Assembly (NCBI GenBank): GCA_030583785.1
Contig: CP129475.1
Span: 914,209-978,208 of the forward strand
Length of the DNA stretch: 64,000 nt
Direction of reading: 5' to 3'
DNA from: Candidatus Dojkabacteria bacterium
GTDB taxonomy: Bacteria; Patescibacteriota; Dojkabacteria; B142; OLB20
The notes under the pieces: generated by a model
Told to the model about the DNA's origin: nothing
Database searches by the model: none
Seen by the model: the letters and a program-made list of their open reading frames with translations, nothing else
In this document: one piece after another, positions 581 to 19,829 of the stretch
Numbering within the stretch: the stretch's first letter is position 1
Layout: the number at the start of each line of letters is the position of its first letter
Position numbers and translations under genes: made by a program

Positions 581-590
581 TTGTAGTTAA

Positions 591-4837: not shown

Positions 4838-4924
4838 TATCTTTGGTTTCCAAAGTATGATACATATGACCGAACATGATCTTATCATACTGGGAAATTC
4901 AAGAATTGTCTGTGGTGTAGTGAA

Positions 4925-4960
4925 TGGGGTGAGTTATTAGACTCGTTCCTGAACCTGCGG
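4925..4960. repeat. Putative attL of the integrative island: an 11-bp perfect direct repeat (tgaacctgcgg, 4950-4960) preceded by a degenerate copy of the tRNA-His 3' end
   Basis: tgaacctgcgg is identical at 4950-4960 and at 19625-19635 (inside the tRNA-His T-arm and at the recombinase stop). The upstream 4925-4943 sequence tggggtgagttattagact resembles the tRNA 3'-end sequence tggggtggttgacaggact at 19606-19624. Confidence 0.4.
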
Positions 4961-5080
4961 ATTGAGTTTAAGGTGAATGTTAATAATGTTCAATTCCTTT
5001 TAGGAAAATCGCTCGCGGCGTGACCTATAGTCTTATTTCTGCTACAATCACTGAAAAGTTTAATTAAATACACATTATTA

Positions 5081-5899
5081 ATGCGTAGGAGTATTCAATC
5101 CATAGAGTCGTCTGGGGTTGGTTTATCTACGCACATTGCTCGATACAATTTCCCTGCACGCTCTGATTATGAGCAATACTATATGTCTGGTGGGCAGATT
5201 CAATCCCCAGAAGAGTTATGGCAGAACAATGATTATGTCGCAGATGTTCAGAGACACTGGCATACTAAAGGGCAGAACGGATGTGTCTTTGCACAAAGGC
5301 AAGCAATAATTGGTGACGGGTGGAATACGCATGTAGTGTCTGATCCACTTGAAACGATACTCGGAGAAGACATTTTAGGTGATATCCCTTTGGTTGTCGC
5401 CAATGCAATAAATGATCCTAGTATTGAAGTTGTGAGTCTTTTGTTCCCTCAAGTGCGAACATCTGCCGAATTGGTAGTGTTCCTAAAGGCTCTTCGGTCA
5501 ACAAAACCATTTACTGTAGGACGAGAGGACAGATTTGATGATTATACTGCCCTAGGATTACGATTTCCCATTTCTGACGAAGTTACTGCTTGGATAGTAG
5601 GGTTCGCCCCATTCCCTTATTTACCTATAACTCGGCAAGCGCCTTCATTGGAACTTGCAGTGCGTGTGAAGGTAAAACCAGAAGATATGTTCTATAAATT
5701 AAATCATGATCAGAGTGTTGCACATCCTGCAGATATTCCTTTACAGATGGATGACGAGGTTGCAGAAAGACTATATACTATCACTGTAGAAAAAACAGCG
5801 GAATTGTTAGGGGGACATGATGCAAGAAAGAATAATCCCCATGCAAAGGCGAAGTACACTATATCCGTTCCCACTGAGCTGTGGTTTGGTGACACATAA
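5081..5899 (+). CDS. Hypothetical protein, possibly YqcI/YcgG-family-like
   Basis: Weak motif resemblance from memory (NGCVFAQ; IVGFAPFPYLPITRQAP compared with the YqcI signature FVFGSCP.Y..RR). GC content is higher than the left flank, and the gene is the first one inside the putative island. Confidence 0.3.
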   Translation: MRRSIQSIESSGVGLSTHIARYNFPARSDYEQYYMSGGQIQSPEELWQNNDYVADVQRHWHTKGQNGCVFAQRQAIIGDGWNTHVVSDPLETILGEDILGDIPLVVANAINDPSIEVVSLLFPQVRTSAELVVFLKALRSTKPFTVGREDRFDDYTALGLRFPISDEVTAWIVGFAPFPYLPITRQAPSLELAVRVKVKPEDMFYKLNHDQSVAHPADIPLQMDDEVAERLYTITVEKTAELLGGHDARKNNPHAKAKYTISVPTELWFGDT

Positions 5900-5931
5900 A
5901 AGAGATTAAATAAGTTAACAAAAATACATCA

Positions 5932-6573
5932 ATGATAGAAGTAGAAAAGAGATCTCTTGTAACTCAACAACAACTTGATACTCACCCCCTTAAGAACTTT
6001 TTTTCTGAGAAGGCAACGTTACAAAAACACTTTCGTCGCTTTACGATGGTTGGTATAGAAAATGCAGATTTTACTCCAAATCCTGATTCACTGATTGACC
6101 TAAAGGTGAGGACAACAGAAGAAAAAGGACTACTTACTGTAAAATATGGAAATTGGCATACGGGGACTGCAAGAGAAGAGCATGAAATATCTTTTAACCC
6201 TGAGACTGAGATAACAGCGGTAATGAATATCCTTAGGTTATTGGGAAGACAAACATTTATTATTAGTTATCTTGAGCGGTTTGAGTATCATTTCGAAAAC
6301 ATCATTATTACAAAGGACGTTTATAAATCGATGCCGGGCTCAATTTTATTAGAGCTGGAGGTAGGAGTACAGAATGAGAATGAGGTCGAATCAGCGGAAA
6401 AAAAGATTGATAACCTTATGGCTGAATTACAGTTAGAGACGCTTGATTCTGAGGGAACAAAAAGATTTATTGCTGATATGAATGCTATCAAAGAGTACCA
6501 GGTGAGTTTTGTGAGTCAGTCAGTTGACGAATGGTATACAAAATGGAGTGATTACATTCATTGTCGAATATAA
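5932..6573 (+). CDS. CYTH (triphosphate tunnel) domain protein
   Basis: The N-terminal MIEVEKR matches the CYTH ExExK signature, and there are later acidic ELE/LELEVG strands. The size of about 210 aa is typical. Confidence 0.5.
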   Translation: MIEVEKRSLVTQQQLDTHPLKNFFSEKATLQKHFRRFTMVGIENADFTPNPDSLIDLKVRTTEEKGLLTVKYGNWHTGTAREEHEISFNPETEITAVMNILRLLGRQTFIISYLERFEYHFENIIITKDVYKSMPGSILLELEVGVQNENEVESAEKKIDNLMAELQLETLDSEGTKRFIADMNAIKEYQVSFVSQSVDEWYTKWSDYIHCRI

Positions 6574-6589
6574 ATTAACATTCAGCATA

Positions 6590-7162
6590 ATGATAAAGGT
6601 TCAACTTGGTGGTAAGTTTACAAGAGAGGATGATGGGATTTTCCTGTTAAAGAAAAAACTGAAGGAGAGTGGACATTTTAGTATTCGGTATCCAGAAGGA
6701 GATGGGATTATGACTGATCATAATGGTATACCACTAACATTCGATCCAGCAAAAGAGAAAAAGTCTTTTTATGAAGTCGAGCTAGACTTTATGTTATCAA
6801 TCAAAGAATCTGATTTTCACATTGTTTATAATAAGTTTGCAGAAAAAATTGGCTACATTGGTGAGAGTTCGAGCATAGAAATTGCGTATGGGTTAGTTCA
6901 TGATAAAAACATTGTCCTCATGCACCAACCACTTTTTTCGGATAAAGTTCCAGAGAGTATCAAAAACCTCATTTCTGTAGCGGTGCAAAAAGAAAAAATA
7001 CTTGTTATTCCCTTATATACATATAATCTCACCGAAATTGATAATTTTGTTCATGATTATAAATCCTATGAGGTAAAGTATTCATTATCTGTTACTCAGG
7101 AAATGACAGTATTACAAGAAGTCGAAAAACTTCTATTATCATACAAGAATGCAAATTTCTAA
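6590..7162 (+). CDS. Hypothetical protein
   Basis: ORF with an internal ATG start (MIKVQLGG). The listed ORF at 6524 overlaps the upstream gene. No motif was recognised. Confidence 0.4.
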   Translation: MIKVQLGGKFTREDDGIFLLKKKLKESGHFSIRYPEGDGIMTDHNGIPLTFDPAKEKKSFYEVELDFMLSIKESDFHIVYNKFAEKIGYIGESSSIEIAYGLVHDKNIVLMHQPLFSDKVPESIKNLISVAVQKEKILVIPLYTYNLTEIDNFVHDYKSYEVKYSLSVTQEMTVLQEVEKLLLSYKNANF

Positions 7163-7164
7163 TA

Positions 7165-8031
7165 ATGTCTGATGCTTTAATTGACAGAGATCCCATGCCT
7201 GATCCACACCCATTGCTACAATACGAAACTATACGGCCAGGTATTGAACAATATCGTCTCGATCTTCGTGTTCTCTATCCCGATAGAGCAAAAAGAGATG
7301 CATTTGAGGGCAAGTGGCAAAGATTTTATGATTCTGATTCAGCAAACAGGGATGTTTTTGGGAGAGAAGATGATGCAATTATTTATCTTTCCGAATCACT
7401 TATTCCTGAGAAAAAAGACGAAAGACCCCCGTTGTTAATGGTTTTTGGTAATCCTGCGCCACATTCTATTAAGGAGGGTATGTTTTTTTCATATGAAGGA
7501 AATGGCAGAGAACATCGTATTTGGAAAATATTCAGAGATGTCGGGATAGTCTCGTTTGAGTTAGACACATTGTTCGAGGATCCAAATGAGCGAAGGAAAC
7601 GGCAGTTACATTCTCTTGAATACCATTCCCCATTTAGGATTGGGATGATACCATTTTACGCGATGGCAACAACGCCAAGTGCAGCACCATGGACTGGAGT
7701 ATCTGGTCTTTATAGGCTATTTGGAACGCAGGCAATGCAGAACATTGCAATGGCCGAAAGAGAGAGGCTAGGACGCATAGTGAGGAACTTTATGTCAGAT
7801 GGTGGGCTTATTATCGCCTTTCAAAAAGATGCATACGAGAATCTTTCACATGCTGAAGCCCCAGCTTATGGGAGAGATTCTGCATTACAAAATGGTCTTA
7901 TTGCATATTACGATGGGAATCCAGATGTAATGGTTGCGGGATCGCCTCCCACCCGTTCACTTCATGGAGTTCAAGCGAAAAAAGCACTTGCAGGGATTGT
8001 AGTGAAGTTTTTTAAAAGGGATGGGATGTAG
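7165..8031 (+). CDS. UDG-superfamily, MUG/TDG-like DNA glycosylase homologue (divergent motif)
   Basis: LLMVFGNPAPHS...EHRIWKIFRDVGIV parallels E. coli Mug VFCGINPGLSS...ANRFWKVIYQAGF. The catalytic-motif position carries GNPAP instead of GINPG. Confidence 0.4.
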   Translation: MSDALIDRDPMPDPHPLLQYETIRPGIEQYRLDLRVLYPDRAKRDAFEGKWQRFYDSDSANRDVFGREDDAIIYLSESLIPEKKDERPPLLMVFGNPAPHSIKEGMFFSYEGNGREHRIWKIFRDVGIVSFELDTLFEDPNERRKRQLHSLEYHSPFRIGMIPFYAMATTPSAAPWTGVSGLYRLFGTQAMQNIAMAERERLGRIVRNFMSDGGLIIAFQKDAYENLSHAEAPAYGRDSALQNGLIAYYDGNPDVMVAGSPPTRSLHGVQAKKALAGIVVKFFKRDGM

Positions 8032-8247
8032 TTGGGGATTAAAAGATGGGGTGGAGAAACTCAACCTGCGTGAACTTTTAGAGCAAATAGATATTAAATC
8101 CCTTAATGGTATCGATAAAGTTCACGAGCAGTATGCACAATACGTAGCTGCCGACCTTGCAGGCGAGAAAGTGAAACTTATCGACTACCGTTTATAGCCT
8201 TCTACTTGAAAGTAAGGAGGATAGTAAATGAACTAATACAGTATTAT

Positions 8248-8276
8248 TTGAATGGTAGAGCTAGACAATGTATCAT
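8248..8276 (+). promoter_or_regulatory. Candidate sigma70-like promoter for mrr (TTGAAT - 17 bp - TATCAT)
   Basis: TTGAAT at 8248-8253 and TATCAT at 8271-8276 with a TG immediately upstream. It lies about 40 bp upstream of the mrr ATG. Confidence 0.3.
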
Positions 8277-8317
8277 GATGATAAGTATAGATAAAAATCG
8301 ACCCACGAACTAAAACT

Positions 8318-9157
8318 ATGGCGGTACCTAAATACGACGACCTCTTTCAACCATTACTAGATGCATTGCATCAACTAGGCGGGTCGGGTACGGTCGAAGA
8401 AATCAACGAAAAAGTAGCAGAAATGCTAAATCTCTCAGAAGACGATGTAAATGAAATTCACAAAGGCACTGCTACGAAACTTGCCTACCGTTCTGGTTGG
8501 TCAAAAAACTACCTAAAACGGTATGGCTTAATCGAAAATTCCGAGCGAGGCGTGTGGCGGTTAACACTTAAAGGTCAGCAGACCAAAGTTGTAGATAAGG
8601 CGGATGTCCGTAGATTTGTACAAAAGCTATCACGCAAACAGGTAAACGTTGCGGATGCTGCAAATGACGGTCTTGAGCCAAACGAAACAGAAACCACGTG
8701 GGAGGAAGCGTTAATCCAAAAGTTATTGGAAATATCACCTGAATCATTTGAGAAATTATGCCAACGCATTTTGCGCGAATCTGGATTTATCCAGGTCGAA
8801 GTCACTGGCAAAAGTGGTGACGGCGGCATTGATGGTAAAGGGATTTTGCGTTTGAACGGATTATTGAGCTTCCACATCATTTTTCAGTGCAAACGCTATT
8901 CTGGCGCAGTCAGTTCCAAAGAAATCAGAGATTTCCGCGGTGCAATGCAAGGTCGAGCAGACAAAGGCCTATTTTTGACTACTGGAACATTTACCCGTGA
9001 TGCCAAGCAGGAAGCTACACGTGATGGCGCGCCACCGATTGACCTTGTAGACGGTAATTTATTAGCCCAGAAGCTCAAAGAACTTAGACTGGGCGTTGAC
9101 GTCGAAGTCCAGGAAGAAGTTACGATTAATCCAGCATTTTTTGAACAGTACAGTTGA
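8318..9157 (+). CDS. mrr: Mrr-like type IV (modification-dependent) restriction endonuclease
   Basis: The N-terminal Mrr_N winged helix (PKYDDLFQPLLDAL...) is followed by a PD-(D/E)xK Mrr_cat core (GKSGDGGIDGKG...FQCKRY). Confidence 0.8.
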   Translation: MAVPKYDDLFQPLLDALHQLGGSGTVEEINEKVAEMLNLSEDDVNEIHKGTATKLAYRSGWSKNYLKRYGLIENSERGVWRLTLKGQQTKVVDKADVRRFVQKLSRKQVNVADAANDGLEPNETETTWEEALIQKLLEISPESFEKLCQRILRESGFIQVEVTGKSGDGGIDGKGILRLNGLLSFHIIFQCKRYSGAVSSKEIRDFRGAMQGRADKGLFLTTGTFTRDAKQEATRDGAPPIDLVDGNLLAQKLKELRLGVDVEVQEEVTINPAFFEQYS

Positions 9158-9333
9158 TGACCGACGACACATACCTAACAATCGAAGAAGTGGCAGAAAA
9201 GCTCAAAGTAGCCTACATCACTGTGTATAGGTGGGTAAGAACTGGTCAGCTAAAATCGGTTAAAGCTGGCAAGCAACATCGGATAAAGCAAACCGACCTA
9301 GATAATTTTTTAGAACGAAAAAATGGCGCTTAG
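9157..9333 (+). CDS. Small excisionase-family HTH DNA-binding protein (58 aa)
   Basis: The ATG at 9157 overlaps the mrr stop (ATGA). The product MTDDTYLTIEEVAEKLKVAYITVYRWVRTGQLKSVKAGKQHRIKQTDLDNFLERKNGA matches the excisionase-family HTH_17 pattern (LTxxEVAExLxVSxxTVYRWxxxGxLPAxKxGxxWRI). Its stop at 9331-9333 overlaps the start of the downstream RM gene by 11 nt. It is absent from the ORF track because it is under 60 aa. Confidence 0.55.
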   Translation: MTDDTYLTIEEVAEKLKVAYITVYRWVRTGQLKSVKAGKQHRIKQTDLDNFLERKNGA

Positions 9334-12031
9334 TTGGAATGAAATAAAAAAACGCGCCATAGAGTTCTCTAAATCGTGGGAAGGGGTCGAACGCGAGAAA
9401 GCAGAGGCACAAACCTTCTGGAATGAGTTCTTTGAGGTATTTGGACAAACTCGCAGGAAAGTCGCCATCTTAGAGCAGGAAGTTAAAAGACTAGATGAAT
9501 CCAAAGGCTATATTGACCTATTTTGGCCAAAGGTACTCTTGGCAGAGGCTAAATCCAAGGGCAAAGACCTGGTTAAAGCCAAAGAACAGGCGATTTCCTA
9601 CCTTCATGGCATCGAAGACAGTGAATTACCACAGTATATTTTGACCTCTGACTTTGATGCTATGTCCCTACTCGACCTTGAATCAGGTGAGTCGTGGCAG
9701 TTCAAAGTCGGGAAATTACACGAAAATATCAAACTATTTTCTTTTATTGCTGGCTATGCGAAAACTGACTTCAAGGAAGAGGACCCTGTAAACATAAAAG
9801 CTGCGGAATTAATGGGTAAATTACATGACAGCCTCACGGAAGCAGGTTATTCTGGACATACTTTGGAAGTTTTCCTGGTCAGAGTGCTATTTTGTTTATT
9901 TGCTGACGACACTGGCATTTTTGAAAAAGGTACTTTTTCTCAATACATTAGCAGCACCAAAGTTGACGGCACCGACGTTGGTCCCCAGCTTGCGCAGCTT
10001 TTCCAGTTGCTAGATACGCCAGAAGAAAAGCGGTTTAGAAACCTTGATGAAAATCTCGCTAGGTTCCCTTACGTTAACGGTAAGCTATTTGAGGAAGTCA
10101 TACCTATGGCTGGATTCGATAGCACCATGCGCGGGTCACTAATCGCCTGTTCACAGTTTGATTGGAGTCGTATATCACCTGCTGTGTTTGGTTCATTGTT
10201 CCAATCTGTAATGGACCAAAAAGCCCGCAGAAACCTCGGCGCGCACTATACCAGTGAATCAAACATTTTAAAGGTAATAAGGCCGCTTTTCTTGGATGAA
10301 CTGTGGCAAGAATTTGAGTTGGTAAAAAATAACAAACCAAAGCTAGCCCAGTTCCATGACAAAATTGCTGGCTTGAAATTTATGGACCCTGCCTGCGGTT
10401 GTGGTAACTTTTTGGTCATCACCTACCGAGAATTGCGCTTACTTGAGTTAGAGGTCGTTAAAAAGTTGGCTGGACATCAAAGGACCTTTGACATAACAAG
10501 CCTCGTTAAACTCAACGTAGACAGCTTTTACGGTATAGAAATTGAGGAATTCCCAGCCAGAATCGCTGAAGTAGCCATGTGGCTAGTTGACCACCAAATG
10601 AACGTCAGATTCTCAGAAGAACTTGGGCAGTATTTTGTTCGTTTGCCGTTAAAAAAATCTGCCAACATAATTCACGGCAACGCCCTTCAAATCGACTGGC
10701 AATCTATCGTAAAACCTTCTGAGCTGTCATACATACTAGGCAACCCACCTTTCGTCGGCAAACAAATGCGAAGCAGAGAACAAACTGAAGACCAGCTTAA
10801 AGTAATGGCAGGTATAAAAGGAGCAGGTGTGCTAGATTTCGTAGCTTGCTGGTATATAAAAGCGGCACAGTACATCCAAAATACTGCAATTAAAGTTGCA
10901 CTAGTATCCACAAATTCAATAACGCAGGGTGAACAGGTCGGAATTCTATGGAGCGAGCTATTTGCAAAGTATGGTATAAAAATCCACTTCGCCCACCGCA
11001 CATTCCAATGGAACAGCGAGGCCAGGGGTAAAGCCGCCGTACACGTCGTAATTATAGGTTTTGCTAACTTCGACGACACGACGAAATACATATTTGAATA
11101 TGACCACATTCAGTCAGAGCCACATAAAATTAAAGTCAAAAACATAAACCCCTATTTGGTTGAAGGTAAAGAGTTAACAGTTCCCCTTAGGCGTAATCCC
11201 ATTTGTGATGTACCACGCATGGATTATGGAAGTACACCAAGGGATTTTAACCATTTAGTTTTGTCTTCTGATGAAAAAGAGGCATTAATCAGTGCGGAAC
11301 CTTTGGCAAAAAGATTTATCCGCCCATTCATAGGTTCATTTGAGTTTATTAATAACGTCAAAAGATACTGTTTATGGCTTGAAAATGTAACACCAAGTGA
11401 GCTCAACCAACTCCCGCTTGTGAAAGCAAGGGTTGAATTGGTGCGCAAAGATAGAAATCTAAGTGAAAGAGCTGGAACTAAGAAAATGGCCGAATATCCA
11501 ACTCTATTCGCGGAAAACCGTCAGCCTGACACGGATTATCTAGTTGTACCTCTAGTATCGTCAGTTAATAGAACTTATGTGCCTATTGGTTTCATGGATA
11601 AAAGTACAGTTACAAATAACCAGGTTTCAATAGTTCCTGAAGCTGGATTGTTTCACTTCGCAGTCATACAATCCTTAATGCACATGACATGGATGAGGTA
11701 TATTGCAGGACGATTAAAAAGCGATTACAGATATTCAAATTCATTGGTATACAATAATTTCCCTTGGCCAGCCAGCATCACAGATGACCTAAAAAGTCGA
11801 ATTGAATTTAAAGCACAGGAAGTGCTTAATATTAGGGCAGATTTTAATGATTCGACACTTGGTGAATTATATAACTCTCTGACAATGCCAGCTAAACTGC
11901 TAAAAGCACATAAGGAATTAGACAAATTAGTCGACAAGGCATATCGCAAAGACACCTTTGGTGATGACCGCGAGCGTATTGAGTTTTTGTTTGAGCTGTA
12001 TGCTGGCTTAACGCAAGCCCCAATCCAATAG
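9323..12031 (+). CDS. MmeI-family type IIL restriction-modification enzyme (fused endonuclease + N6-adenine methyltransferase + TRD)
   Basis: The N-terminus MALSWNEIKKRAIEFSKSWEGVEREKAEAQTFWNEFFEVFG...IDLFWPKVLLAEAKSKGKDL matches the MmeI N-terminal PD-ExK nuclease. An NPPF motif (LGNPPFVGKQ) and an FxGxG SAM region (MDPACGCGNFLV) are present. The 902-aa size fits the family. Confidence 0.85.
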   Translation: MALSWNEIKKRAIEFSKSWEGVEREKAEAQTFWNEFFEVFGQTRRKVAILEQEVKRLDESKGYIDLFWPKVLLAEAKSKGKDLVKAKEQAISYLHGIEDSELPQYILTSDFDAMSLLDLESGESWQFKVGKLHENIKLFSFIAGYAKTDFKEEDPVNIKAAELMGKLHDSLTEAGYSGHTLEVFLVRVLFCLFADDTGIFEKGTFSQYISSTKVDGTDVGPQLAQLFQLLDTPEEKRFRNLDENLARFPYVNGKLFEEVIPMAGFDSTMRGSLIACSQFDWSRISPAVFGSLFQSVMDQKARRNLGAHYTSESNILKVIRPLFLDELWQEFELVKNNKPKLAQFHDKIAGLKFMDPACGCGNFLVITYRELRLLELEVVKKLAGHQRTFDITSLVKLNVDSFYGIEIEEFPARIAEVAMWLVDHQMNVRFSEELGQYFVRLPLKKSANIIHGNALQIDWQSIVKPSELSYILGNPPFVGKQMRSREQTEDQLKVMAGIKGAGVLDFVACWYIKAAQYIQNTAIKVALVSTNSITQGEQVGILWSELFAKYGIKIHFAHRTFQWNSEARGKAAVHVVIIGFANFDDTTKYIFEYDHIQSEPHKIKVKNINPYLVEGKELTVPLRRNPICDVPRMDYGSTPRDFNHLVLSSDEKEALISAEPLAKRFIRPFIGSFEFINNVKRYCLWLENVTPSELNQLPLVKARVELVRKDRNLSERAGTKKMAEYPTLFAENRQPDTDYLVVPLVSSVNRTYVPIGFMDKSTVTNNQVSIVPEAGLFHFAVIQSLMHMTWMRYIAGRLKSDYRYSNSLVYNNFPWPASITDDLKSRIEFKAQEVLNIRADFNDSTLGELYNSLTMPAKLLKAHKELDKLVDKAYRKDTFGDDRERIEFLFELYAGLTQAPIQ

Positions 12032-12079
12032 GCTTACTTATCTACATCTGTTCTCTCTGAAGGCTTTTAGCGTTTAACC

Positions 12080-12108
12080 TTGTGTTTTAGAATTTGTAGG
12101 TGTATAAT
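12080..12108 (+). promoter_or_regulatory. Candidate promoter of the higB operon (TTGTGT - 17 bp - TATAAT)
   Basis: -35 TTGTGT at 12080-12085 and a perfect -10 TATAAT at 12103-12108, about 40 bp upstream of the higB ATG. Confidence 0.45.
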
Positions 12109-12124
12109 TTCCCAAAATGGGAAA
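12108..12124. promoter_or_regulatory. Inverted repeat TTTCCCA-aaa-TGGGAAA overlapping the predicted transcription start; candidate antitoxin operator
   Basis: A perfect 7-bp inverted repeat with a 3-bp spacer sits immediately after the -10 element. Type II TA operons are typically autoregulated through such palindromes. Confidence 0.35.
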
Positions 12125-12150
12125 AGATAATCAATCATTAAAACTGAATA

Positions 12151-12438
12151 ATGAAACTAGTAGGAATGCCAATTTTAAGTGAGTTTAAATCGAAGCATGC
12201 GGATGTGAAGTCACCAATCGACTCATGGGTGCAAGAAGTAAAAGCGGCGCAATGGCAGAACACTCACGACGTAAAGGCAAGGTACTCATCGGCTGACTTC
12301 TTTAAAGGCAATCGCGTAGTAATTAACTTGAAGGGTAATAAATATAGACTACTTTTTCGAGTTAATTATCAGGTGAAAGTGGTACAGGTGGAGAAAGTCG
12401 GCACACATAATGAATACAATAAGTGGAATTTAAATTAG
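12151..12438 (+). CDS. higB: HigB toxin (RelE/ParE superfamily mRNA interferase)
   Basis: 95 aa; FKGNRVVINLKGNKYRLLFRVNYQVKVVQVEKVGTHNEY matches the HigB signature. It sits upstream of a HigA-like gene and overlaps it by 16 nt. Confidence 0.75.
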   Translation: MKLVGMPILSEFKSKHADVKSPIDSWVQEVKAAQWQNTHDVKARYSSADFFKGNRVVINLKGNKYRLLFRVNYQVKVVQVEKVGTHNEYNKWNLN

Positions 12439-13658
12439 CGAACAAAATTATGGCAATAAAAGTAATAAAAACAGATGAAGAATACCAGGAGGCATTGGAA
12501 CTCTTAACTGCCCTCATGGCAAAAGACATTGAACCTCATTCAAGCGAGGCCGAAACCCTTGAATTGCTTGCAGCACTCATCGAGGATTACGAAGAAACAA
12601 TGTGGGGCGAAAATATCCCTGACCCAATTGATGCATTGCAGTTTAGAATGGAACAACAAGGGCTAACAGCCGACGACCTTGTTCCTTATATTGGTAGTCG
12701 TAGCAAAGTATCTGAAGTCCTATCGCGAAAGAGGCCGTTAAGTCTGAATATGCTCAAATCACTGCAAACTGGATTAGGGATTCCTGCAAATGTTCTTTTA
12801 AATCAGCCGAGAACCCAGGAGTTTAAAGGGGTTGATATAGAGCAGTTCCCTTTGAAAGAAATGATAAAAAGGGGTTATATCCAGGGCAAAATTGACGAAG
12901 GGCTAGATTATTTAGAAAAAAAGGTAAATGAATTTCTAAGCCCAGTCTTGGATAGTACTCACATTTCGACACTATTAAGTAAGACCTCCTATATTCGCTC
13001 ATCTAGGCCAATGAGTAGGCATGCCTTAATTGCGTGGGTAGCTGAAGTAATGCGTAAAGCAGAACAGAAAGAAAATATCGTTGAATTTGATGTAGCCTAT
13101 TTGGACAAAAACCTTCTCAATCAAGTAATAAAATTCAGTTCGGAAGATGGTGGTATTAATAAAGCCATAAAATATATTGAAGAAAATGGCATCTCAGTTG
13201 TCGTTGAACCCCATCTGCCTAAAACATATTTGGATGGTGCGGCTATTATGATTGATGGTAAAAACCCAGTAATAGGTTTAACCATTCGACATGACCGACT
13301 CGACAATTTTTGGTTTACCCTATTACATGAGTTATCTCATATCGTTTTGCATTACGATGAAGGAGTCCATCTATTCTATGACGACCTAGACACAATCGAC
13401 AGCACTAATCCAAAAGAAAAAGAAGCTGATGATTTAGCTATTAATACAATGATACCTTTAGACAAATGGAAAGTCAGTCCAGCTAGCATATTACCTTCTC
13501 CCGATGCAGCTAAACTGCTCGCAAACCAATTAGGGATACATATATCAATTGTTGCGGGACGAATGAGATACGAAAGAAAGCAGTACCAATTCCTAAATGA
13601 ACTAATTGGAAAAGGTGAAGTGCGTAAATATTTTCCAGAGGTGAAATGGGAGGTATGA
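12423..13658 (+). CDS. higA: HigA-like antitoxin (XRE HTH) fused to an ImmA/IrrE-family (COG2856, DUF955) HEXXH metallopeptidase domain
   Basis: The N-terminal ~135 aa align with HigA (EEYQEALELLTALM...IGSRSKVSEVLSRKRPLSLNMLKSLQTGLGIPANVLL). The C-terminal ~270 aa carry the HELSHIVLH zinc-peptidase motif. The start may be the internal Met at 12450. Confidence 0.7.
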   Translation: MEFKLANKIMAIKVIKTDEEYQEALELLTALMAKDIEPHSSEAETLELLAALIEDYEETMWGENIPDPIDALQFRMEQQGLTADDLVPYIGSRSKVSEVLSRKRPLSLNMLKSLQTGLGIPANVLLNQPRTQEFKGVDIEQFPLKEMIKRGYIQGKIDEGLDYLEKKVNEFLSPVLDSTHISTLLSKTSYIRSSRPMSRHALIAWVAEVMRKAEQKENIVEFDVAYLDKNLLNQVIKFSSEDGGINKAIKYIEENGISVVVEPHLPKTYLDGAAIMIDGKNPVIGLTIRHDRLDNFWFTLLHELSHIVLHYDEGVHLFYDDLDTIDSTNPKEKEADDLAINTMIPLDKWKVSPASILPSPDAAKLLANQLGIHISIVAGRMRYERKQYQFLNELIGKGEVRKYFPEVKWEV

Positions 13659-13659
13659 A

Positions 13660-14736
13660 ATGGAACATAATCAGAAATACATGCCAATACTACGATGGAA
13701 AAAAGCTGAGAGAGATGCATTAAAGTCGTTATCGGACGACCAAAAGAAAAACATCGTGCCGCTGTTTGAAATGGTTCCTAAAAGGATAACTGACCCCAAG
13801 AACAAGGACAACAAGTTACCAATGCCACCTAAACAGAATCTCGGCAATTGCATTGCATTCATACATAAAGAATTGACTGATATGAAAGTGCTATTGGACG
13901 TTACACATGTATATCCAAAGAAAGCAGAAGCGTTTGATGAAATGAGCATACCGACTACCTTATTTGGTAACAACCTTGTCCCAGTATTAAATTTGAATGA
14001 CATCAGAGCAGAGAACTTTAGCACAAATGTAAAAACCTTTTTTCGCAATCAAGGTATATGTCTAAGAGTAAAGTATAAGGAGATAGATGATAGTTTTTGG
14101 AATAGCGTAGACAACGAATTAACGGGCCTTGGCCTGACCAGACAGGATGTTGATTTTGTCATGGATTATGGGATTGCAAGCGTGAACCAAAAGGATGAAA
14201 TGCACAAGATAGTCAGTGATACCGACAAGACCACGGGATGGCGTAGCTATTTCTTTGCTAGTGGAGCTTTTCCTAAAGATTTACAAAAGATTACGCCTGG
14301 GAAAAAAGAGGAACTCGCACGAATCGACTGGACAAATTGGACTGACCTACTTAATCAAAACCCAGAACTACGATTACCGGGATTTAGCGACTACACGATT
14401 CAATATGCGGAGTATCACGAACCACCTGAAAAGGCTTTCCCAAGCTACAGCATAAGGTATACAGCACCAAATAAGTGGATTATTATGCGTGGACAAGGGT
14501 CAAATGCCCAAAATAGCGCTGGAGATAAACAATACTACGCGCATTCGGTCCTTTTAGTCATGGAAAGCGATTTCGCAGGTGCGAGTTGCTGTGAAAGCGA
14601 TAAAGACATCATCGCCCTAAGCCAAAATCCTGATGGCAAAATGGGAACACCCCAAAGCTGGATAAGAGCTGGGATAAGACATCACATTGTAGTTACGTTA
14701 AAGGGAGTAGAAAGCGTTTTGTCTTCTGGTAACTAG
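13660..14736 (+). CDS. Uncharacterised 358-aa protein, translationally coupled to higA (possibly Beta-protein/sce7725-like family)
   Basis: The ATG at 13660 lies 1 nt after the higA stop. N-terminus MEHNQKYMPILRWKKAERDALKSL. No catalytic motif was recognised. The family guess is from memory only. Confidence 0.45.
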   Translation: MEHNQKYMPILRWKKAERDALKSLSDDQKKNIVPLFEMVPKRITDPKNKDNKLPMPPKQNLGNCIAFIHKELTDMKVLLDVTHVYPKKAEAFDEMSIPTTLFGNNLVPVLNLNDIRAENFSTNVKTFFRNQGICLRVKYKEIDDSFWNSVDNELTGLGLTRQDVDFVMDYGIASVNQKDEMHKIVSDTDKTTGWRSYFFASGAFPKDLQKITPGKKEELARIDWTNWTDLLNQNPELRLPGFSDYTIQYAEYHEPPEKAFPSYSIRYTAPNKWIIMRGQGSNAQNSAGDKQYYAHSVLLVMESDFAGASCCESDKDIIALSQNPDGKMGTPQSWIRAGIRHHIVVTLKGVESVLSSGN

Positions 14737-15288
14737 ACACTCTCTTACAGAGGCTTTAAGCTCTCTTTCTGTAAAATTCTTCACCAACACTTCACAGATT
14801 TCCTTTTTATTTTTGCTATTCATGCCGTGAGCCAGATTTCTTCTTTTTAGGATATCAAGTGCTTCCGTTTTCCAGAGCATATTAGCAATAGTTAGCAAAT
14901 CCTGTGCTGGGTTTTCTTCTGCATTGCGCACACTAATAAGTTTAGGTTCATATTCGCTGTCTACTACTTTAGCTATAGTTATACCCCACCAATCTGGAAT
15001 CATTCTCAGTGCCTCAACCACATGACTTTTGCCAACCACAAGCGTAACTTTGTCGAAGATTAAGTTGTATGTGTTGGCCTGTGCAGAAAGTCTAAAAAGG
15101 TTATCCAAATCACCTTTTAGTTCATAACAGTGCATTATTCCATTAATAACTGCTATATCTGCTCTTACACTTCCATTGGAAATAGAAAACTCTGGAATAA
15201 TTGCCGTGTCAGGACCATTATATTTATTCTGAAGTTCCGACATTAACACCTTTCTTATTGTTTTGTCGCGAGTAATAAAATTATTCAT
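14698..15288 (-). CDS. sce7726-family-like protein (uncharacterised; usually paired with an sce7725-family gene)
   Basis: VRADIAVINGIMHCYELKGDLDNLFRLSAQANTYNLIFDKVTLVVGKSHVVEALRMIPDWWGI matches the remembered sce7726 signature (vRvDiAvvNG..hGyEiKsd.D.L.RL..Q...Y....D.vtLVvg..H...a....PdWWG). It converges on the upstream gene and overlaps it by 39 nt. Confidence 0.45.
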   Translation of the reverse strand: MNNFITRDKTIRKVLMSELQNKYNGPDTAIIPEFSISNGSVRADIAVINGIMHCYELKGDLDNLFRLSAQANTYNLIFDKVTLVVGKSHVVEALRMIPDWWGITIAKVVDSEYEPKLISVRNAEENPAQDLLTIANMLWKTEALDILKRRNLAHGMNSKNKKEICEVLVKNFTERELKASVRECLVTRRQNAFYSL

Positions 15289-15386
15289 ATAGCAGTTTTA
15301 CTTACAGTATAAATTTTTGCGATAATGACATCAACAATTTAAGCGCCTAACCCCATAAATTTCGGTTTATGGGTATGGACATAAGA

Positions 15387-15521
15387 CCTTGCGAGTATAG
15401 ACGGTTCCATCCGTCCAGATTTGCTCGCAAGGCCTTCAGGGGAAACTCTGATGCTGGATTGGGTGGGACCATTTTTGTGGTTTCCCAGTCCAGCATCGCT
15501 AAACGTATTTTATTTTTTAGC
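15387..15521 (+). promoter_or_regulatory. Highly structured leader: three consecutive hairpins immediately upstream of the ATG at 15531
   Basis: Hairpin 1: ccttgcgag (15387-15395) pairs with ctcgcaagg (15424-15432), with a nested gacgg/ccgtc stem. Hairpin 2: gatgctggattggg (15450-15463) pairs with cccagtccagcatc (15484-15497). Hairpin 3: gctaaa (15498-15503) pairs with tttagc (15516-15521) across a U-rich loop. Confidence 0.35.
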
Positions 15522-15530
15522 AACTGGACT

Positions 15531-16394
15531 ATGCGAATTCCATTTCCCAAAAGCAAGCCTGCAATTGCGGTAATAATAATCGTTGGTATTTTAGTACTCT
15601 GCTCAATCTGCTGCGTGTCAGCTATTCTTATTGCTCCTTCATTGCCTACAACACTTAAACTGACGTCTTCGCCGACGACTTCGTGGGACTCAAAGGAACC
15701 AACCCAGACAGTTAAATTCGATTGTACAAATGCTCAAAAAATCACGCTAAACGGCTCTCAGTTAAACGAAAAGGATAAAAATGAACTTTGTATTGGCAAT
15801 GGTTATAAACTCGATTTGCAGAATGGTCAGAACACTTTTACTTTTGTTGCTAGCCATGAGCGTGGTGACGTTGTGACAGTAGAATTAAAAATCAGTTTTG
15901 ACAAGAAAGCCTATGAGGATAGGTTGGCCGCCGAAGAAAAACAACGGCAAGAAGAGGAAGCTAAACGTAAGCAAAAAGAAGCCGATGACAAGGCAAAAGC
16001 CGAAGCTGAGGCTAACAAACCCAAAGTCGGTGACTCTCTTTTGGGGCCGAGTTACGAAGATATTAAAGCGGAGTATGAAAAGCAAAATAAACTTTCGAGT
16101 TACAAGGGTATGCAATATTTAGAGAGTTTAAAAGGTACCAAGATTGTCTGGGTGGCAGAAATAGGCGATGTCGACGAAGAATCGTTTGGAGATGATTTAT
16201 ACATCTCCTTGCTACTTTCGACTGGCATAGTTCAAAATAAACTAGCTTTTGTCGATAATCCCAAGCCCGAATACCTCAATTTGAATATGAAAACAGTAGT
16301 TAAGGTCACAGGCACGATAAAAGAGGTCAACACAAATTTTTTAGGACAAACAGTCTACATTAATGGTGACGCGACTTTCGAGGTTATCAACTAA
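15531..16394 (+). CDS. Membrane-anchored protein with a Lys/Glu-rich coiled-coil segment (hypothetical)
   Basis: Start set at the internal Met (MRIPFPKSKPAIAVIIIVGILVLCS TM helix). The central region reads KKAYEDRLAAEEKQRQEEEAKRKQKEADDKAKAEAEANK. The listed ORF start at 15369 spans the hairpin region. Confidence 0.45.
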   Translation: MRIPFPKSKPAIAVIIIVGILVLCSICCVSAILIAPSLPTTLKLTSSPTTSWDSKEPTQTVKFDCTNAQKITLNGSQLNEKDKNELCIGNGYKLDLQNGQNTFTFVASHERGDVVTVELKISFDKKAYEDRLAAEEKQRQEEEAKRKQKEADDKAKAEAEANKPKVGDSLLGPSYEDIKAEYEKQNKLSSYKGMQYLESLKGTKIVWVAEIGDVDEESFGDDLYISLLLSTGIVQNKLAFVDNPKPEYLNLNMKTVVKVTGTIKEVNTNFLGQTVYINGDATFEVIN

Positions 16395-16458
16395 CTACGT
16401 TTTATCTTAAATTGAACAAACGTGTGGAACGCCATGTGAGCAGCGGCTATAATGTGCT

Positions 16459-16800
16459 ATGGCTAGACCAACTAAACTCGACCAAATAACAGTCAAAAAA
16501 CTCGAAGAGGCATTTGCCGTAGGAGCAACTGTACCAGAAGCCTGTTTTAATGCGGGTATTAGTAAACAGACATACTACAACTGGACGGGAGAAAACCCTG
16601 AGTTATTGGACCGTTTTGAAGCATTGCAACAATCACCGATTTTGAGGGCTAGGAAGGCGGTATATGAGGGATTGGCAAATGACCCACATTTCGCATTAAA
16701 GTTCCTTGAAAGGAAGCTCAAGGGCGAATTTGGAATAAATCCAAACATAGCCGACACTGGTCACGAAATAAATATTGTCATTAGGAGGAAGCAAAATTAA
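16459..16800 (+). CDS. Phage terminase small-subunit-like HTH protein
   Basis: 113 aa; MARPTKLDQITVKKLEEAFAVGATVPEACFNAGISKQTYYNW...ENPELLDRFEALQ...KFLERK resembles phage TerS-like HTH proteins (PTKYTPEL...ICEAxGISxxTxYxWxxxNPEFxxxxxxAR...WxLERR). Confidence 0.45.
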   Translation: MARPTKLDQITVKKLEEAFAVGATVPEACFNAGISKQTYYNWTGENPELLDRFEALQQSPILRARKAVYEGLANDPHFALKFLERKLKGEFGINPNIADTGHEINIVIRRKQN

Positions 16801-16804
16801 ATAA

Positions 16805-17743
16805 ATGGAAAAGCCCGACATATTAGTATTTCGTGAGAAACGCTGGTTCCAACAATTTATTGGCAAAGAGTATGTTATCTACCACCGCCCTTTAAGCAAA
16901 GGGCAATCCGAATTGCACAGAGAGCTGACAGCTAGCCATGCAATTATGAAATCTCGGCAGTCAGAGGACGGGGAAAAGGAAAAATTTGTTATCTACGAAA
17001 TATTCCCGCATGAATTCCATCAATACTGCCAAGCCGAAATCGACAAACTTAGTGAGTGTAGAAAATCACAGGCCATTCAGACAAAAGAATTATTAGACCT
17101 GCTTGCCGCTGACTTTATCCAACACCAAAACACTGCGCCACTGGTCAACGAAGAGATTCTAGGGAGTTACAAGGCTAACCCTAAATTCGCGGCGGATTCA
17201 CCTAGCAATAGCCGCCATCGATTGAAGTTTAACGCGACCATGCGTCAATTGGAGCTTCAAGGGTATTTTAGGATTACTAACTTCGAGCTAGACGTATTCG
17301 CGACAGAAAAACCACTATCGCCTGAAAAAGCCCATGAACTAGAAAAGAAACCCGACCACAAAACAAAAACCGACTATCTACCTGCCGCTTACAGCAACTA
17401 CAAAATTAAATATCTTAGAGAATTTTCCGAATACGTCAGAAATGGCTATGGGAAAGAAACTGTGGAAATAGAGTTTGACCCTGAAAGTGGAGAAATCTGG
17501 TATGACGGCAAAAGTCGAAGTGTCGTCGGCAAGACTAGCCATTCCTACAAAGTTATAGCCGAATTTGCACTAGGCAAAAGCAGTGTTGAGATTAAGCAAT
17601 TATTTCCTGTTCAAAACGATAGTGATTTTAGACATGAGCTTGCGAAAGAGGTACGCAGGAAGATGGGTTTGTCAGCACAGCAGTTGAGAAATAAAGATGG
17701 AAACTTTATTTTGCAAAATGTTAGCGTAGCACCTAAAAAGTAA
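16805..17743 (+). CDS. Hypothetical protein (312 aa)
   Basis: ORF lying 5 nt after the TerS-like gene. No motif was recognised. Confidence 0.45.
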   Translation: MEKPDILVFREKRWFQQFIGKEYVIYHRPLSKGQSELHRELTASHAIMKSRQSEDGEKEKFVIYEIFPHEFHQYCQAEIDKLSECRKSQAIQTKELLDLLAADFIQHQNTAPLVNEEILGSYKANPKFAADSPSNSRHRLKFNATMRQLELQGYFRITNFELDVFATEKPLSPEKAHELEKKPDHKTKTDYLPAAYSNYKIKYLREFSEYVRNGYGKETVEIEFDPESGEIWYDGKSRSVVGKTSHSYKVIAEFALGKSSVEIKQLFPVQNDSDFRHELAKEVRRKMGLSAQQLRNKDGNFILQNVSVAPKK

Positions 17744-17986
17744 TTAGTTCTATCCCTACTTTTTCCCGCTTTTTTCCTAAGAATCCTACTTGATAGTTGG
17801 GATAGTGATTATGTGGAAAACACAGATATAAACTACAACGGCGAACCAATACGAAACCTACCAGCACTAGTTAAGGCTGTCCAGGTGGAAACCGCTAAAC
17901 GCTCGAGGACCAAACCCACCAAGGCTCTTTCAAAAAAACATAAATATCGAATGAAAGACAAGCTCGGAGAATATATAATGTAGTTA

Positions 17987-19627
17987 ATGAATGATGAGAA
18001 CCCACTTGAACAAGCACAGTACAAAGAGGCATTACTAAAATACGCCCACGCTTACACGCTCAAAAAGCAGAAAAATAAAAGCGAGAAACAACTTTCCGAT
18101 TCTAAACGCTACTATGTTATCTACGCCCGCAAATCCACCGAGGATGATAAACGACAAGTGCAATCCATAGAGGACCAAATCGAACAATGTCAGAAGTTTG
18201 CTAAAAGGGAGAATTTAGAGGTAGTTGATATTGTCCAAGAAGACAAAAGTGCAAAAACCGCTGGTAGACGTCCGAAATTTGCGGCAATGTTGGAACGGTT
18301 AAGGAAAGGTGATTTATACAACAGTATCCTGGCATGGCATCCAGACCGTTTAGCGCGCAATATGAAGGAAAGTGGAGAGATACTGGACCTGCTCGATAAC
18401 GACATTATTGTCGACCTTAAATTTCCATCTTACTCATTCAACAATGATGCTGCGGGCAAAATGACTCTAAGTATTTTGTTCGCGATGGCAAAGGAATTTT
18501 CCGACAAGTTATCAGAGGATACGAAGCGCGGTATTCGTAAAAAGATTCGCGAAGGTAAATATTCAGGCACAGGCAAACGTGGTTATATGGTGAACAAGCA
18601 CGAATATTTTAGACCCGATGACAGCAACTTCGCAATATATCAAAAGGCATGGCAGGAATACAGTAGTGGCAAAACGCAAAGTGAAATTATCCGCGGCTTA
18701 AAGGAACAAGGTGAGAAAATTTCCACAAATGGTATGTCAGAATACTTCCAAGACCCTTTTGTAGCTGGCATTTATACTTACGGTGAGCAGGTAGTTGACC
18801 TCGAAAAAGTAGACCCTAAATTTACGCCTATGATAGGTCCCAAGGAGTTTTTAATGGCACAAAAGATAAACAGGCCTAATCCACGCGGTTGGTGCATGAA
18901 CGATGAATTCAAACCACTAAATGACCTAGTCTTGTGTGCTGATTGTGGCAACCCAATGATTGCTGGTTTGAGTGAAGGTAATCGTTATCGATACCTAAAC
19001 CTGACTTGTAGCAATCGGGCTTGTAAGGAGAAAAGGCGAGAGAAAAAGATTAAACCAGTATCCAACACCATACGCGCATTCGAGATAATCGACTTTGCCC
19101 GTAGAGTGTTTGATGAATTGCTAAATATTGACCAAGCTACTTACGACAAGGCCAAGAAAAAGTATTTCACCGAACGCAGTGCGGTCATTAAAGGATTGGT
19201 TGCAGAGTCTGCAAAGTTGAAAGCTAGCAAATCCAAACTCGAAACTAAGTCCTCCAAACTAAGCGACCAGATACTCGAAAAGCACAGTGAAGATGTCAAA
19301 CAAAAGTTCTCAGAGGAATTTACAAGCGTGCTTGCGCAGATTAGAAATATTGACGCAAGTTTAGTTACCTTGGAACAAAAAAAGCGGGATTTGGAATTTG
19401 AAATCGAAGATGAATTTCCTGACTTCAAGACGTTTCTGAACTTCTTTGAAAACATATCGGCCACAATAGAATCCACCGATAATGCCTATCTTGTCGACCA
19501 ACTAGTGAAATTGGTATTTCTGAACCTAACTGTAAGTGAGAAAAAGGTTGTTAAATATACCCTTCGCGAGCCTTTCAAAACCTATGAGAACCTGAATTTC
19601 CTTGTTGGGGTGGTTGACAGGACTTGA
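17987..19627 (+). CDS. Large serine recombinase (integrase)
   Basis: Resolvase catalytic domain YVIYARKSTEDDKRQVQSIEDQ with the nucleophile Ser. The 546-aa length and a Cys-rich recombinase/zinc-ribbon region (CADCGNPM...CSNRAC) fit a large serine recombinase. Its 3' end overlaps the tRNA-His 3' end. Confidence 0.85.
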   Translation: MNDENPLEQAQYKEALLKYAHAYTLKKQKNKSEKQLSDSKRYYVIYARKSTEDDKRQVQSIEDQIEQCQKFAKRENLEVVDIVQEDKSAKTAGRRPKFAAMLERLRKGDLYNSILAWHPDRLARNMKESGEILDLLDNDIIVDLKFPSYSFNNDAAGKMTLSILFAMAKEFSDKLSEDTKRGIRKKIREGKYSGTGKRGYMVNKHEYFRPDDSNFAIYQKAWQEYSSGKTQSEIIRGLKEQGEKISTNGMSEYFQDPFVAGIYTYGEQVVDLEKVDPKFTPMIGPKEFLMAQKINRPNPRGWCMNDEFKPLNDLVLCADCGNPMIAGLSEGNRYRYLNLTCSNRACKEKRREKKIKPVSNTIRAFEIIDFARRVFDELLNIDQATYDKAKKKYFTERSAVIKGLVAESAKLKASKSKLETKSSKLSDQILEKHSEDVKQKFSEEFTSVLAQIRNIDASLVTLEQKKRDLEFEIEDEFPDFKTFLNFFENISATIESTDNAYLVDQLVKLVFLNLTVSEKKVVKYTLREPFKTYENLNFLVGVVDRT

Positions 19628-19682
19628 ACCTGCGGCATCCAGTGCCACAAACTGGCGCTCTACCGACTGAGCTACAACCACC
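19605..19682 (-). tRNA. tRNA-His (anticodon GTG), CCA encoded
   Basis: Reverse complement GGTGGTTGTAGCTCAGTCGGTAGAGCGCCAGTTTGTGGCACTGGATGCCGCAGGTTCAAGTCCTGTCAACCACCCCA forms a cloverleaf. The anticodon loop is TTGTGGC (GTG), and the usual His-specific extra 5' G / C73 arrangement is present. Confidence 0.85.
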
Positions 19683-19829
19683 ATAATACTCCGTCAATTA
19701 TAGCAAAAGATCCGCAATCCTTGCTAAATTTCTGCGATGTAATATTAATCTGCAACCATCTTCTCAGCTAGGTTTGAACTGCCAAGTAATATTAGTCTAA
19801 TATGGTGTCATACTCTTCAACATGTAAAT

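Follow-up and report, generated by a model that had tools for sequence, protein, structure and literature searches.

A serine recombinase gene that ends within a tRNA gene raises two questions: which DNA does the recombinase move, and what becomes of the recombinase gene when that DNA inserts? We addressed both for a stretch of 64,000 nt from Candidatus Dojkabacteria (GCA_030583785.1, CP129475.1, positions 914,209-978,208), hereafter the window, to which all coordinates are relative. It carries an open reading frame (ORF) for a large serine recombinase (LSR) and, convergent with it, a gene for tRNA-His(GTG) (Table 1). An initial annotation had placed the two in an integrative island of about 14.7 kb at 4925-19690, with an 11-mer repeat as its attachment (att) sites. 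Here we delimit a smaller unit, 8055-19605, which is very probably an integrative defence island inserted at the extreme 3' end of tRNA-His and moved by the LSR, the only recombinase that it contains. We establish the boundaries and target of this element, the splitting of its recombinase gene, the conservation of the detached gene end and the selection acting on it, and the generality of the design among related elements.

Boundaries and target of the element

The initial annotation was right that a tRNA-His gene and a serine recombinase gene meet at this position and that the recombinase ORF ends inside the T-arm of the tRNA: its stop codon, TGA at 19625-19627, is supplied by the antisense T-loop (ACTTGAA). 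The tRNA's 3' end (…CAACCACCCCA) faces lower coordinates. For strain comparison we used 14 public contigs that encode a gnd protein identical in every residue to that of the window, where gnd (19830-21260) adjoins the tRNA. In configuration A (L002 and L005, the latter being GCA_001567305.1) window position 3928 is fused to 19602, giving the gene order DEAD-box helicase, tRNA-His, gnd. Configuration B (L001, L003, L007, L008 and L009) has window 1-8054 fused to 19606 onward; it keeps the five genes of 3971-8031 and has none of 8055-19605. The full arrangement, configuration C, is found in the window and in L004/L010.

These junctions define the crossover region. The configuration B junction reads …GGGGATTAAAAGA-TGGGGTGG-TTGACAGGACTTGAACC…, and the window reads …AAAAGA-TGGGGTGG-AGAAACTCAACC… at 8047 and …CCTTGT-TGGGGTGG-TTGACAGG… at 19606. 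The attB predicted from the window, AAAAGA-TGGGGTGG-TTGACAGG, is present in five empty-site contigs with identical gnd and flanks that are 99-100% identical. Only TGGGGTGG is common to attL, attR and the empty attB, and the cores of related His-type elements intersect at GGGT, within which the crossover dinucleotide should fall judging from the aligned sequences. Because the core is the complement of the last eight tRNA bases, insertion leaves the tRNA gene unaltered; the tRNA-His sequence is identical in the empty-site contigs L001 and L003, and is thus the same with or without the element. By strain comparison, the LSR-linked unit comprises 8055-19605 plus one 8-bp copy of the core, 11,559 bp in all. 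The flanks of configurations B and C are 99.9-100% identical, so that the difference between them is recent. In sample DRR859381 one contig stops at 19635 and another begins at 19606, which fits a branch in the k=31 assembly graph between occupied and empty sites coexisting in one sample.

The same junctions bear on the larger unit, a single island at 4925-19690 with the 11-mer TGAACCTGCGG at 4950-4960 as attL, attR in the T-arm and a displaced, degenerate tRNA 3' end at the left. The repeat is genuine: the 11-mer occurs exactly twice in the 64 kb, at 4950-4960 and 19625-19635, against 0.01 expected. Classical tRNA islands leave a displaced tRNA fragment, and the left copy is preceded by TGGGGTG (4925-4931), which makes a degenerate tRNA 3' end plausible there, although the gapped alignment alone is not significant (score 23.5 vs 19.7 +/- 2.3 for shuffles). 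However, strains with identical flanks have 3929-8046 beside the tRNA without 8055-19605, the presence/absence junction lies at 8047-8054, the detached end of the recombinase gene described below begins at 8055 and not at 4961, and other strains carry a different island after 8052. The core lies at the very 3' end of the tRNA rather than in the T-arm, strain contigs join 8054 to 19606, and the left 11-mer is 3.1 kb outside the element. A 14.7-kb unit is accordingly very improbable. Strains lacking the island had been put forward as a check, and the element is indeed absent from some strains with identical gnd, but only 8055-19605 is linked to the recombinase; the left third of the proposed island belongs to 3929-8046, which in configuration B stands beside tRNA-His with no recombinase, an outcome that had been named beforehand as refuting the island.

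The base composition of the two intervals also differs. The whole region had been described as richer in GC than its flanks, which holds weakly for the element (0.408 vs 0.386 +/- 0.012 for the host, whose 4-kb windows reach 0.411) but not for 3929-8046, whose GC of 0.385 equals that of the host. The tetranucleotide profile, likewise suggested as a check, sets 8055-19605 clearly apart (L1 distance 0.211 vs a host maximum of 0.107).

The arms of the att sites were less informative. An octamer, AACCTGCG, is separated from the core by 8 nt in the element arm (8055-8075) and by 13 nt in the tRNA arm (19614-19634), a 5-bp offset. In known serine integrases the motif bound by the zinc-ribbon domain is 4-5 bp nearer the centre in attB than in attP (PMC11722253); the offset observed here runs in the opposite sense. 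The motif recurs in one relative only, L094 (CACCTGCG), and the offset may be chance. When the att half-sites were viewed by eye for dyad symmetry, AACCTG was seen on both sides of attP as a direct and not an inverted repeat. Promoter and terminator scans around both junctions returned nothing better than shuffled sequence.

The recombinase gene is split at its own attachment site

The initial annotation overlooked that the recombinase ORF extends over the crossover site and resumes at the opposite end of the element. Residues 1-542 of the chromosomal LSR are encoded by the element; the tRNA-His gene supplies, from its antisense strand, residues 543-546 (VDRT) and the stop, the codon phase across the core being …GTT GGG GTG / GTT GAC AGG ACT TGA. 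At the joint of the circle, where 19605 would meet 8047, the frame reads …GTT GGG GTG GAG AAA CTC…; the ORF gains 47 codons and reaches a stop at 8195-8197, for a total of 589 aa. Hence attP falls at Gly-Val codons of the LSR gene, 47 codons before its natural stop. In the integrated state the 47-codon tail lies 11.5 kb from the LSR, at the opposite element end, and four tRNA-antisense codons substitute for it.

Several observations show that the joined ORF is not a product of chance. A hidden Markov model (HMM) of the tail, constructed from six other elements with the window left out, gave one significant match in the six-frame translation of the window, at 8006-8194 (E=1.1e-12). Most homologs are 540-550 aa long and cover 92% of the 589-aa query, and the tails of these short homologs are antisense tRNA read-through (GVDDGT or GVDNGT followed by the stop, …GLEPSTLGTTNR…). 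Two homologs, P0009 (588 aa) and P0051 (581 aa), have instead a contiguous tail that can be aligned with that of the window (GVEKL…AG..V..I.Y[KR]L and the stop), and their DNA has GGGGTGGA at the junction. The ratio of nonsynonymous to synonymous substitution rates (dN/dS) of tails, all sampled in the detached state, is 0.09-0.25 in unsaturated close pairs. Together with the same layout in relatives (see below), the contiguous tails, the HMM match and the low dN/dS exclude a chance ORF, and these sequence comparisons indicate that the tail is a functional coding sequence under purifying selection.

The enzyme is a large serine integrase

In the window LSR, PF00239 scores above its Pfam cut-off, and PF07508 (Recombinase) and PF13408 (Zn-ribbon) score below theirs; the latter two are precomputed matches in many LSR homologs. 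Ser50, Arg48, the DRLxR motif and the zinc-ribbon cysteines C317, C320, C341 and C346 are invariant in 33 homologs. The AlphaFold 2 (AF2) model of P0009, which is 55% identical to the window LSR, has a mean predicted local distance difference test score (pLDDT) of 86 and contains the catalytic, recombinase and zinc-ribbon domains together with a coiled coil at 382-475, formed by two long antiparallel helices (382-430 and 434-475, pLDDT >90). It superposes on the SPbeta, Bxb1, PhiC31 and LI integrases at a probability of 1.0. Considering its resolvase, recombinase, zinc-ribbon and coiled-coil parts and its short att identity, we conclude that the window enzyme is a large serine integrase. The tail of P0009 (540-588) comes after the last hairpin and helix of the zinc-ribbon domain, behind the coiled coil.

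Related elements share the design

Scans of one genome per species and of Joint Genome Institute (JGI) metagenomes with a recombinase alignment yielded 160 family loci. To these were added 18 loci from viral contigs, which held distant relatives only (<=35% identity), and the long-form contigs L093 and L094, giving n=180 loci, in 145 of which the 3' end of the LSR was resolved. The records of named loci are mostly metagenome-assembled genomes of the Patescibacteria/candidate phyla radiation (CPR), including Saccharibacteria, WS6/Dojkabacteria, Paceibacteria, Woesebacteria, Gracilibacteria and others.

A convergent tRNA gene contains the end of the LSR ORF in 114 of these 145 loci, the modal overlap being 20-22 nt; nine further loci have an LSR ORF that runs off the contig with a tRNA-like tail. 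The targets are tRNAs for Pro (40), His (19), Leu (19), Val (11), Ala (7), Asp (5), Ile (5), Met (4), Gly (3), Arg (1) and Lys (1). When the tail HMM was iterated it gave 52 matches, all on the LSR strand and 0 on the opposite strand. Split configurations account for 37 of the 52 and come from 30 distinct elements, 2.9-9.6 kb in size, whose cores are found no more than a few bases from the 3' terminus of the tRNA; a further five matches are in long forms, where the gene is unsplit and contiguous. Among the His-type relatives, L013, L014, L015 and L021 have the tail 5-9 kb upstream of the LSR, immediately following a copy of the tRNA-end core. Over its length of about 45 aa the tail keeps one nearly invariant Glu (…T.LELF…) and ends in hydrophobic residues (I-D-Y-x-L and variants); it is conserved across LSRs that are only ~30% identical and use eleven different tRNA targets. 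Searching a collection of 5.8 billion proteins with a profile of 29 reconstructed C-terminal regions returned four truncated fragments only.

The frame across the core was checked with the longest string common to both junctions, chosen without regard to frame. In 16 of the 17 distinct loci with a shared junction string of at least 7 nt, the tail is kept in the LSR frame (P=2.7e-7). This result also bears on whether the 47-codon piece could be a small gene of its own, located at the element's left end, as might be supposed from the 58-aa ORF (8021-8197) that gene callers annotate in L010. The ATG of that ORF lies in host-side DNA outside the element, and the piece is both in frame with the LSR in nearly all loci and contiguous with it in the five unsplit genes; an independent gene is therefore extremely unlikely.

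A few loci differ in layout. In L017 (11560-21530) a 54%-identical recombinase ends in GVGYMTLL and a stop with no tRNA adjacent, the nearest tRNA-His being 9.8 kb further on; the locus may be a tandem array or a decayed junction. L154 (8991-10736), L155, L145/L146 and L167 are ~32-34% identical, have long unsplit C-termini and lie on contigs of 20-50 kb with no tRNA nearby, the L154 recombinase gene standing among NB-ARC/NACHT, RecD2 and methylase genes. They may be either free elements or a branch of the family that does not split. In the 62%-identical relative L013 (4270-4430) the detached tail needs a +1 frameshift for read-through; either an immobilised copy has begun to decay or the assembly is in error.

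A proposed role for the two isoforms

We propose that the element inserts at the 3' end of tRNA-His by a crossover inside TGGGGTGG, leaving the tRNA intact. The full-length 589-aa form could be made only from the circle and would therefore be the form that carries out integration. The truncated 546-aa form, the only one possible from the chromosome, would have to perform any autonomous excision, possibly helped by the conserved 113-aa helix-turn-helix (HTH) protein or the 58-aa HTH_17 protein of the element. On this view the exchange of C-termini would be an intrinsic switch, depending on the state of the element, of the activity, directionality or stability of the recombinase. At its 3' end the LSR mRNA is the complement of the final 22 nt of tRNA-His (19606-19627), and transcription of the convergent tRNA gene into the LSR 3' end may additionally damp LSR expression.

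A role of the isoform swap in directionality is something that we infer from this arrangement. The directionality factor of SPbeta integrase works at the zinc-ribbon domain and the coiled-coil hinge (PMC11722253), and directionality has also been linked to an element at the extreme C-terminus of that enzyme (PMC11722253 and its reference 49). Since the tail follows the zinc-ribbon domain, where SPbeta directionality factors act, a C-terminal switch is plausible. Moreover, many detached tails have intact frames and low dN/dS, which argues for a regular return of the elements to the circular state. Tentatively, these enzymes could thus form a class of serine integrases whose direction or activity is set by the attached gene end, the circle enzyme integrating and the tail-less enzyme excising or being silenced; directionality would in that case be encoded by the topology of the element instead of a separate directionality factor.

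Some of the evidence weighs against this explanation of the locus and its enzyme. The recombinases of L017 and L154/L155 are not adjacent to a tRNA. The excised-circle junction of the window element was not found, and the protein collection holds no 589-aa product at >=90% identity, its sole 100%-identical product being the 546-aa form; without a circle junction, the polymorphism between configurations B and C proves insertion or loss and not reversible excision. The P0009 tail has a pLDDT of 39-73, so that its contact with the coiled coil or the zinc-ribbon domain is unsupported by the model; this low confidence arises because only three alignment rows cover the tail. It could be that the 546-aa form has no activity, or that it is equivalent to the full one, and recent insertion of all sampled copies is a possible alternative account of the intact tails.

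Two other accounts of the split follow from these points. Integration might be one-way, or suicidal, with the chromosomal recombinase inactive as in SSV-type integrases and the element spreading only from free copies or with a helper enzyme. The removal of a conserved 47-aa module on integration, the failure of the protein collection search to find the circle junction of the window element, the build-up of recombinase-less remnants at the same tRNA and an archaeal precedent (PMC7253208) are all in keeping with this account. Against it, the catalytic, recombinase, zinc-ribbon and coiled-coil parts are all kept in the 546-aa form, and detached tails have intact frames and low dN/dS in many integrated copies, with a frameshift in L013 only; dead-end copies should decay unless all are recent. 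We regard one-way integration as doubtful.

Alternatively, the overlap of attP with the gene could have no regulatory meaning and reflect genome compaction, the isoforms being equivalent and a separate factor setting direction. CPR genomes are compact, and the element does encode candidate accessory proteins, the 113-aa HTH protein conserved beside the LSR and the excisionase-like 58-aa HTH_17 protein. Most known LSRs need a separate directionality factor (PMC11722253), which also speaks for this account. It is at odds with the conservation of the tail across such divergent LSRs and so many tRNA targets and with purifying selection: a tail that is conserved and under selection does something that the chromosomal isoform must do without. 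A split with no regulatory meaning is thus unlikely, and the state-dependent switch proposed above remains our preferred, if tentative, reading.

An older block and a hotspot at tRNA-His

The interval 3929-8046 is a separate block outside the LSR element. It is missing in configuration A and present without the LSR in configuration B, and all recovered contigs that have it carry it as one block. We found no recombinase and no tail homolog in it, and none of its proteins matches PADLOC defence models. The block arrived, or was lost, via an event at the tRNA tip. Its four-gene cluster at 5081-8031 (272-aa, CYTH, 190-aa and 288-aa proteins) is conserved as a block in all strains of configurations B, C and D; it has no Pfam match besides CYTH, and the 272-, 190- and 288-aa proteins have no PHROG match.

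Configuration D (L203, L208 and L211) is identical to the window up to 8052 and then enters a different island. Because different islands occupy this one position in other strains of the same species, tRNA-His is a hotspot with strain-specific occupants. In L211 the alternative island (10889-20867) encodes DUF5677, HTH_17 and DUF4357 proteins, a type I-like restriction-modification (RM) system, a 349-aa tyrosine integrase and a second serine recombinase, 29% identical to that of the window; no tail homolog was found at its left end. At least eight further contigs resemble the configuration D arrangement.

Just inside the left boundary of the older block, after TGGGGT, the sequence resembles the configuration D island (…GATTAGAA…). 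Within the block, 4925-4960 is plausibly a degenerate tRNA-His 3' fragment, as its sequence suggests, and this fragment may be where two older insertions meet, perhaps made by a tyrosine integrase like that of configuration D. We also considered 4925-5035 as an old attL with a decayed recombinase tail (the frame reads WGELLDSFLNLRIEF), and rejected it as the tail HMM has no match there.

On the other side of the tRNA, a type V-A CRISPR-Cas locus (21281-30612) directly follows gnd. An array of ~37 repeats with a 62-nt period (21281-23611), which explains a GC trough near 0.30, is followed on the minus strand by cas2 (23810-24091), cas1, cas4, a 1336-aa Cas12a (about 25663-29673) and a 286-aa ORF, and the locus ends just before tRNA-Arg (30708-30783). 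The configuration A strain L005 has different CRISPR spacers.

Cargo of the element

The features of the element and its surroundings are collected in Table 1. The initial annotation had described the cargo as dominated by defence and mobile functions, which is mostly right; the genes that it called HigBA form, with the gene that follows them, a complete PD-Lambda-2 system. Only the 113-aa HTH protein and part of the 312-aa protein recur beside the LSR in relatives, the other cargo being variable. The former recurs a short way upstream of the LSR, with tblastn matches adjoining it in L016, L021, L119, L121 and others, and the C-terminal part of the latter has matches directly upstream of the LSR in L113 and L114. 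On these grounds the 113-aa protein is a candidate accessory or directionality factor, and the 58-aa HTH_17 protein is a candidate regulator or directionality factor.

Table 1. Coordinates of features at the tRNA-His locus of the window.
Feature	Position	Strand	Basis or remark
Older recombinase-less block, outside LSR element	3929-8046		Bounded by TGGGGT at 3923-3928 and 8047-8052
Block genes: metallophosphoesterase, 272-aa, CYTH, 190-aa, 288-aa	3971-4837 (metallophosphoesterase)	- (metallophosphoesterase)
Plausible degenerate copy of last 30 nt of tRNA-His (TGGGGTG ... TGAACCTGCGG)	4925-4960		Inside older block, between divergent genes
attL core TGGGGTGG	8047-8054		Crossover inside; empty-site contigs match window to 8054, then from 19606, with 8-bp overlap
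Detached LSR 3' end, 47 codons plus stop (EKLNLRELLEQIDIKSLNGIDKVHEQYAQYVAADLAGEKVKLIDYRL, stop)	8055-8197	+	In frame via core
Mrr-type (type IV) restriction endonuclease	8318-9157	+	Pfam Mrr_cat 3e-32, Mrr_N 9e-21; PADLOC mREase_IV 4e-27
58-aa HTH_17 (excisionase/MerR-like) DNA-binding protein	9157-9333	+	PF12728 (gene call, L010); PHROG excisionase 1e-10; PADLOC mad1 1e-6
MmeI-like type IIG RM enzyme	9323-12031	+	Five of five MmeI Pfam domains; PADLOC REase_MTase_IIG 1215 bits
PD-Lambda-2 defence system	12151-14736	+	Three adjacent same-strand genes
PD-Lambda-2 A, HigB-like	12151-12438	+	PADLOC 1.5e-38; Pfam HigB_toxin
PD-Lambda-2 B, HTH plus M78 peptidase	12450-13658	+	PADLOC 1.7e-142; Pfam Peptidase_M78
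PD-Lambda-2 C, P4 beta-like	13660-14736	+	PADLOC 1.7e-31; Pfam Beta_protein
Phage P4 cII-like protein	14698-15288	-	PF26915; PADLOC cII 3.5e-28; phrog_984 8.6e-37
341-aa protein	15369-16394	+	No Pfam, PHROG or PADLOC match
113-aa HTH, small-terminase-subunit-like	16459-16800	+	phrog_4102 2.6e-18
312-aa protein	16805-17743	+	No family match
LSR, chromosomal isoform, 546 aa	17987-19627	+	Pfam Resolvase 1.5e-26
attR core TGGGGTGG	19606-19613		Complement of tRNA 3' end CCACCCCA (last 8 bases)
tRNA-His(GTG), integration target	19606-19681	-	ARAGORN
Predicted excised-circle (attP) joint			...CCTTGT-TGGGGTGG-AGAAACTC...
attP junction string, predicted			GAATTTCCTTGTTGGGGTGGAGAAACTCAACCTGCGTGAA
attB junction string			GGGGATTAAAAGATGGGGTGGTTGACAGGACTTGAACC

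Significance and comparison with known systems

Control of direction is the central open question for serine integrases and also limits their use in genome engineering. A family in which integration rewrites the C-terminus of the enzyme offers two ready-made isoforms, with which direction control independent of other factors is directly testable. The family also demonstrates targeting of tRNA 3' ends by serine integrases at large scale in CPR/Patescibacteria; if direction is set by topology, enzymes that target conserved tRNA 3' ends could give integration tools for these organisms. For annotation, the 540-550-aa 'recombinase family protein' entries in these genomes are truncated chromosomal isoforms, and the small ORFs at the far end of each island are the missing recombinase tails. 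At the locus studied here, a recently mobile defence island can now be told apart, by its corrected boundaries, from older remnants at the tRNA-His hotspot. Our search of full-text literature, which largely does not cover subscription journals, returned no account of these CPR elements or of a serine integrase gene with attP inside it.

The enzyme resembles SPbeta SprA, Bxb1, PhiC31 and the A118/LI integrases in having resolvase catalytic, recombinase and zinc-ribbon domains with an inserted coiled coil, and it shares with large serine integrases a very short att identity (here 8 bp) and a gene at the element end beside the att site. It differs from them in that attP lies inside the integrase ORF, so that integration alters the protein, in its target, a tRNA 3' terminus, and in the conserved ~45-aa C-terminal module after the zinc-ribbon domain. 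According to a 2020 survey, the targeting of tRNA genes was not something for which serine integrases were known (PMC7192596).

Tandem arrangement at tRNA genes is recognised as a pattern (PMC7192596), and the locus resembles the tandem tRNA islands of Islander/TIGER, and the accretion of cis-mobilizable remnants, in its stacked units at one tRNA, its recombinase-less remnants and its degenerate tRNA fragment. Unlike those islands, the LSR element uses a serine recombinase and duplicates only 8 bp of the tRNA. It also falls outside the classical Islander definition: the repeat is of 8 bp only, the integrase is a serine and not a tyrosine enzyme, and the 30-nt fragment lies 3.1 kb beyond the element.

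In mycobacteriophages BPs, Brujita and their relatives, attP lies in the 3' part of the repressor gene, and the C-termini of the free and integrated forms differ, which sets the state of the phage (PMC4557955). This integration-dependent immunity likewise places attP in the 3' part of a regulatory gene with two C-terminal forms. There, however, it is the repressor that is split, the integrase is a tyrosine enzyme and an ssrA-like degradation tag is lost, whereas here the recombinase itself is split.

Self-splitting integrases are otherwise known only as archaeal tyrosine enzymes (PMC7253208, PMC8371274). In these 'suicidal' integrases of the SSV type, the integrase ORF contains attP, and integration into the target, a tRNA gene, partitions the integrase gene (PMC7253208, PMC8371274); an attP inside the integrase ORF and a tRNA gene target are thus shared with the element described here. 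Whereas the archaeal tyrosine enzymes are split into two inactive pieces, the bacterial serine recombinase loses its last 47 residues only, and its 546-aa form keeps all recognised domains.

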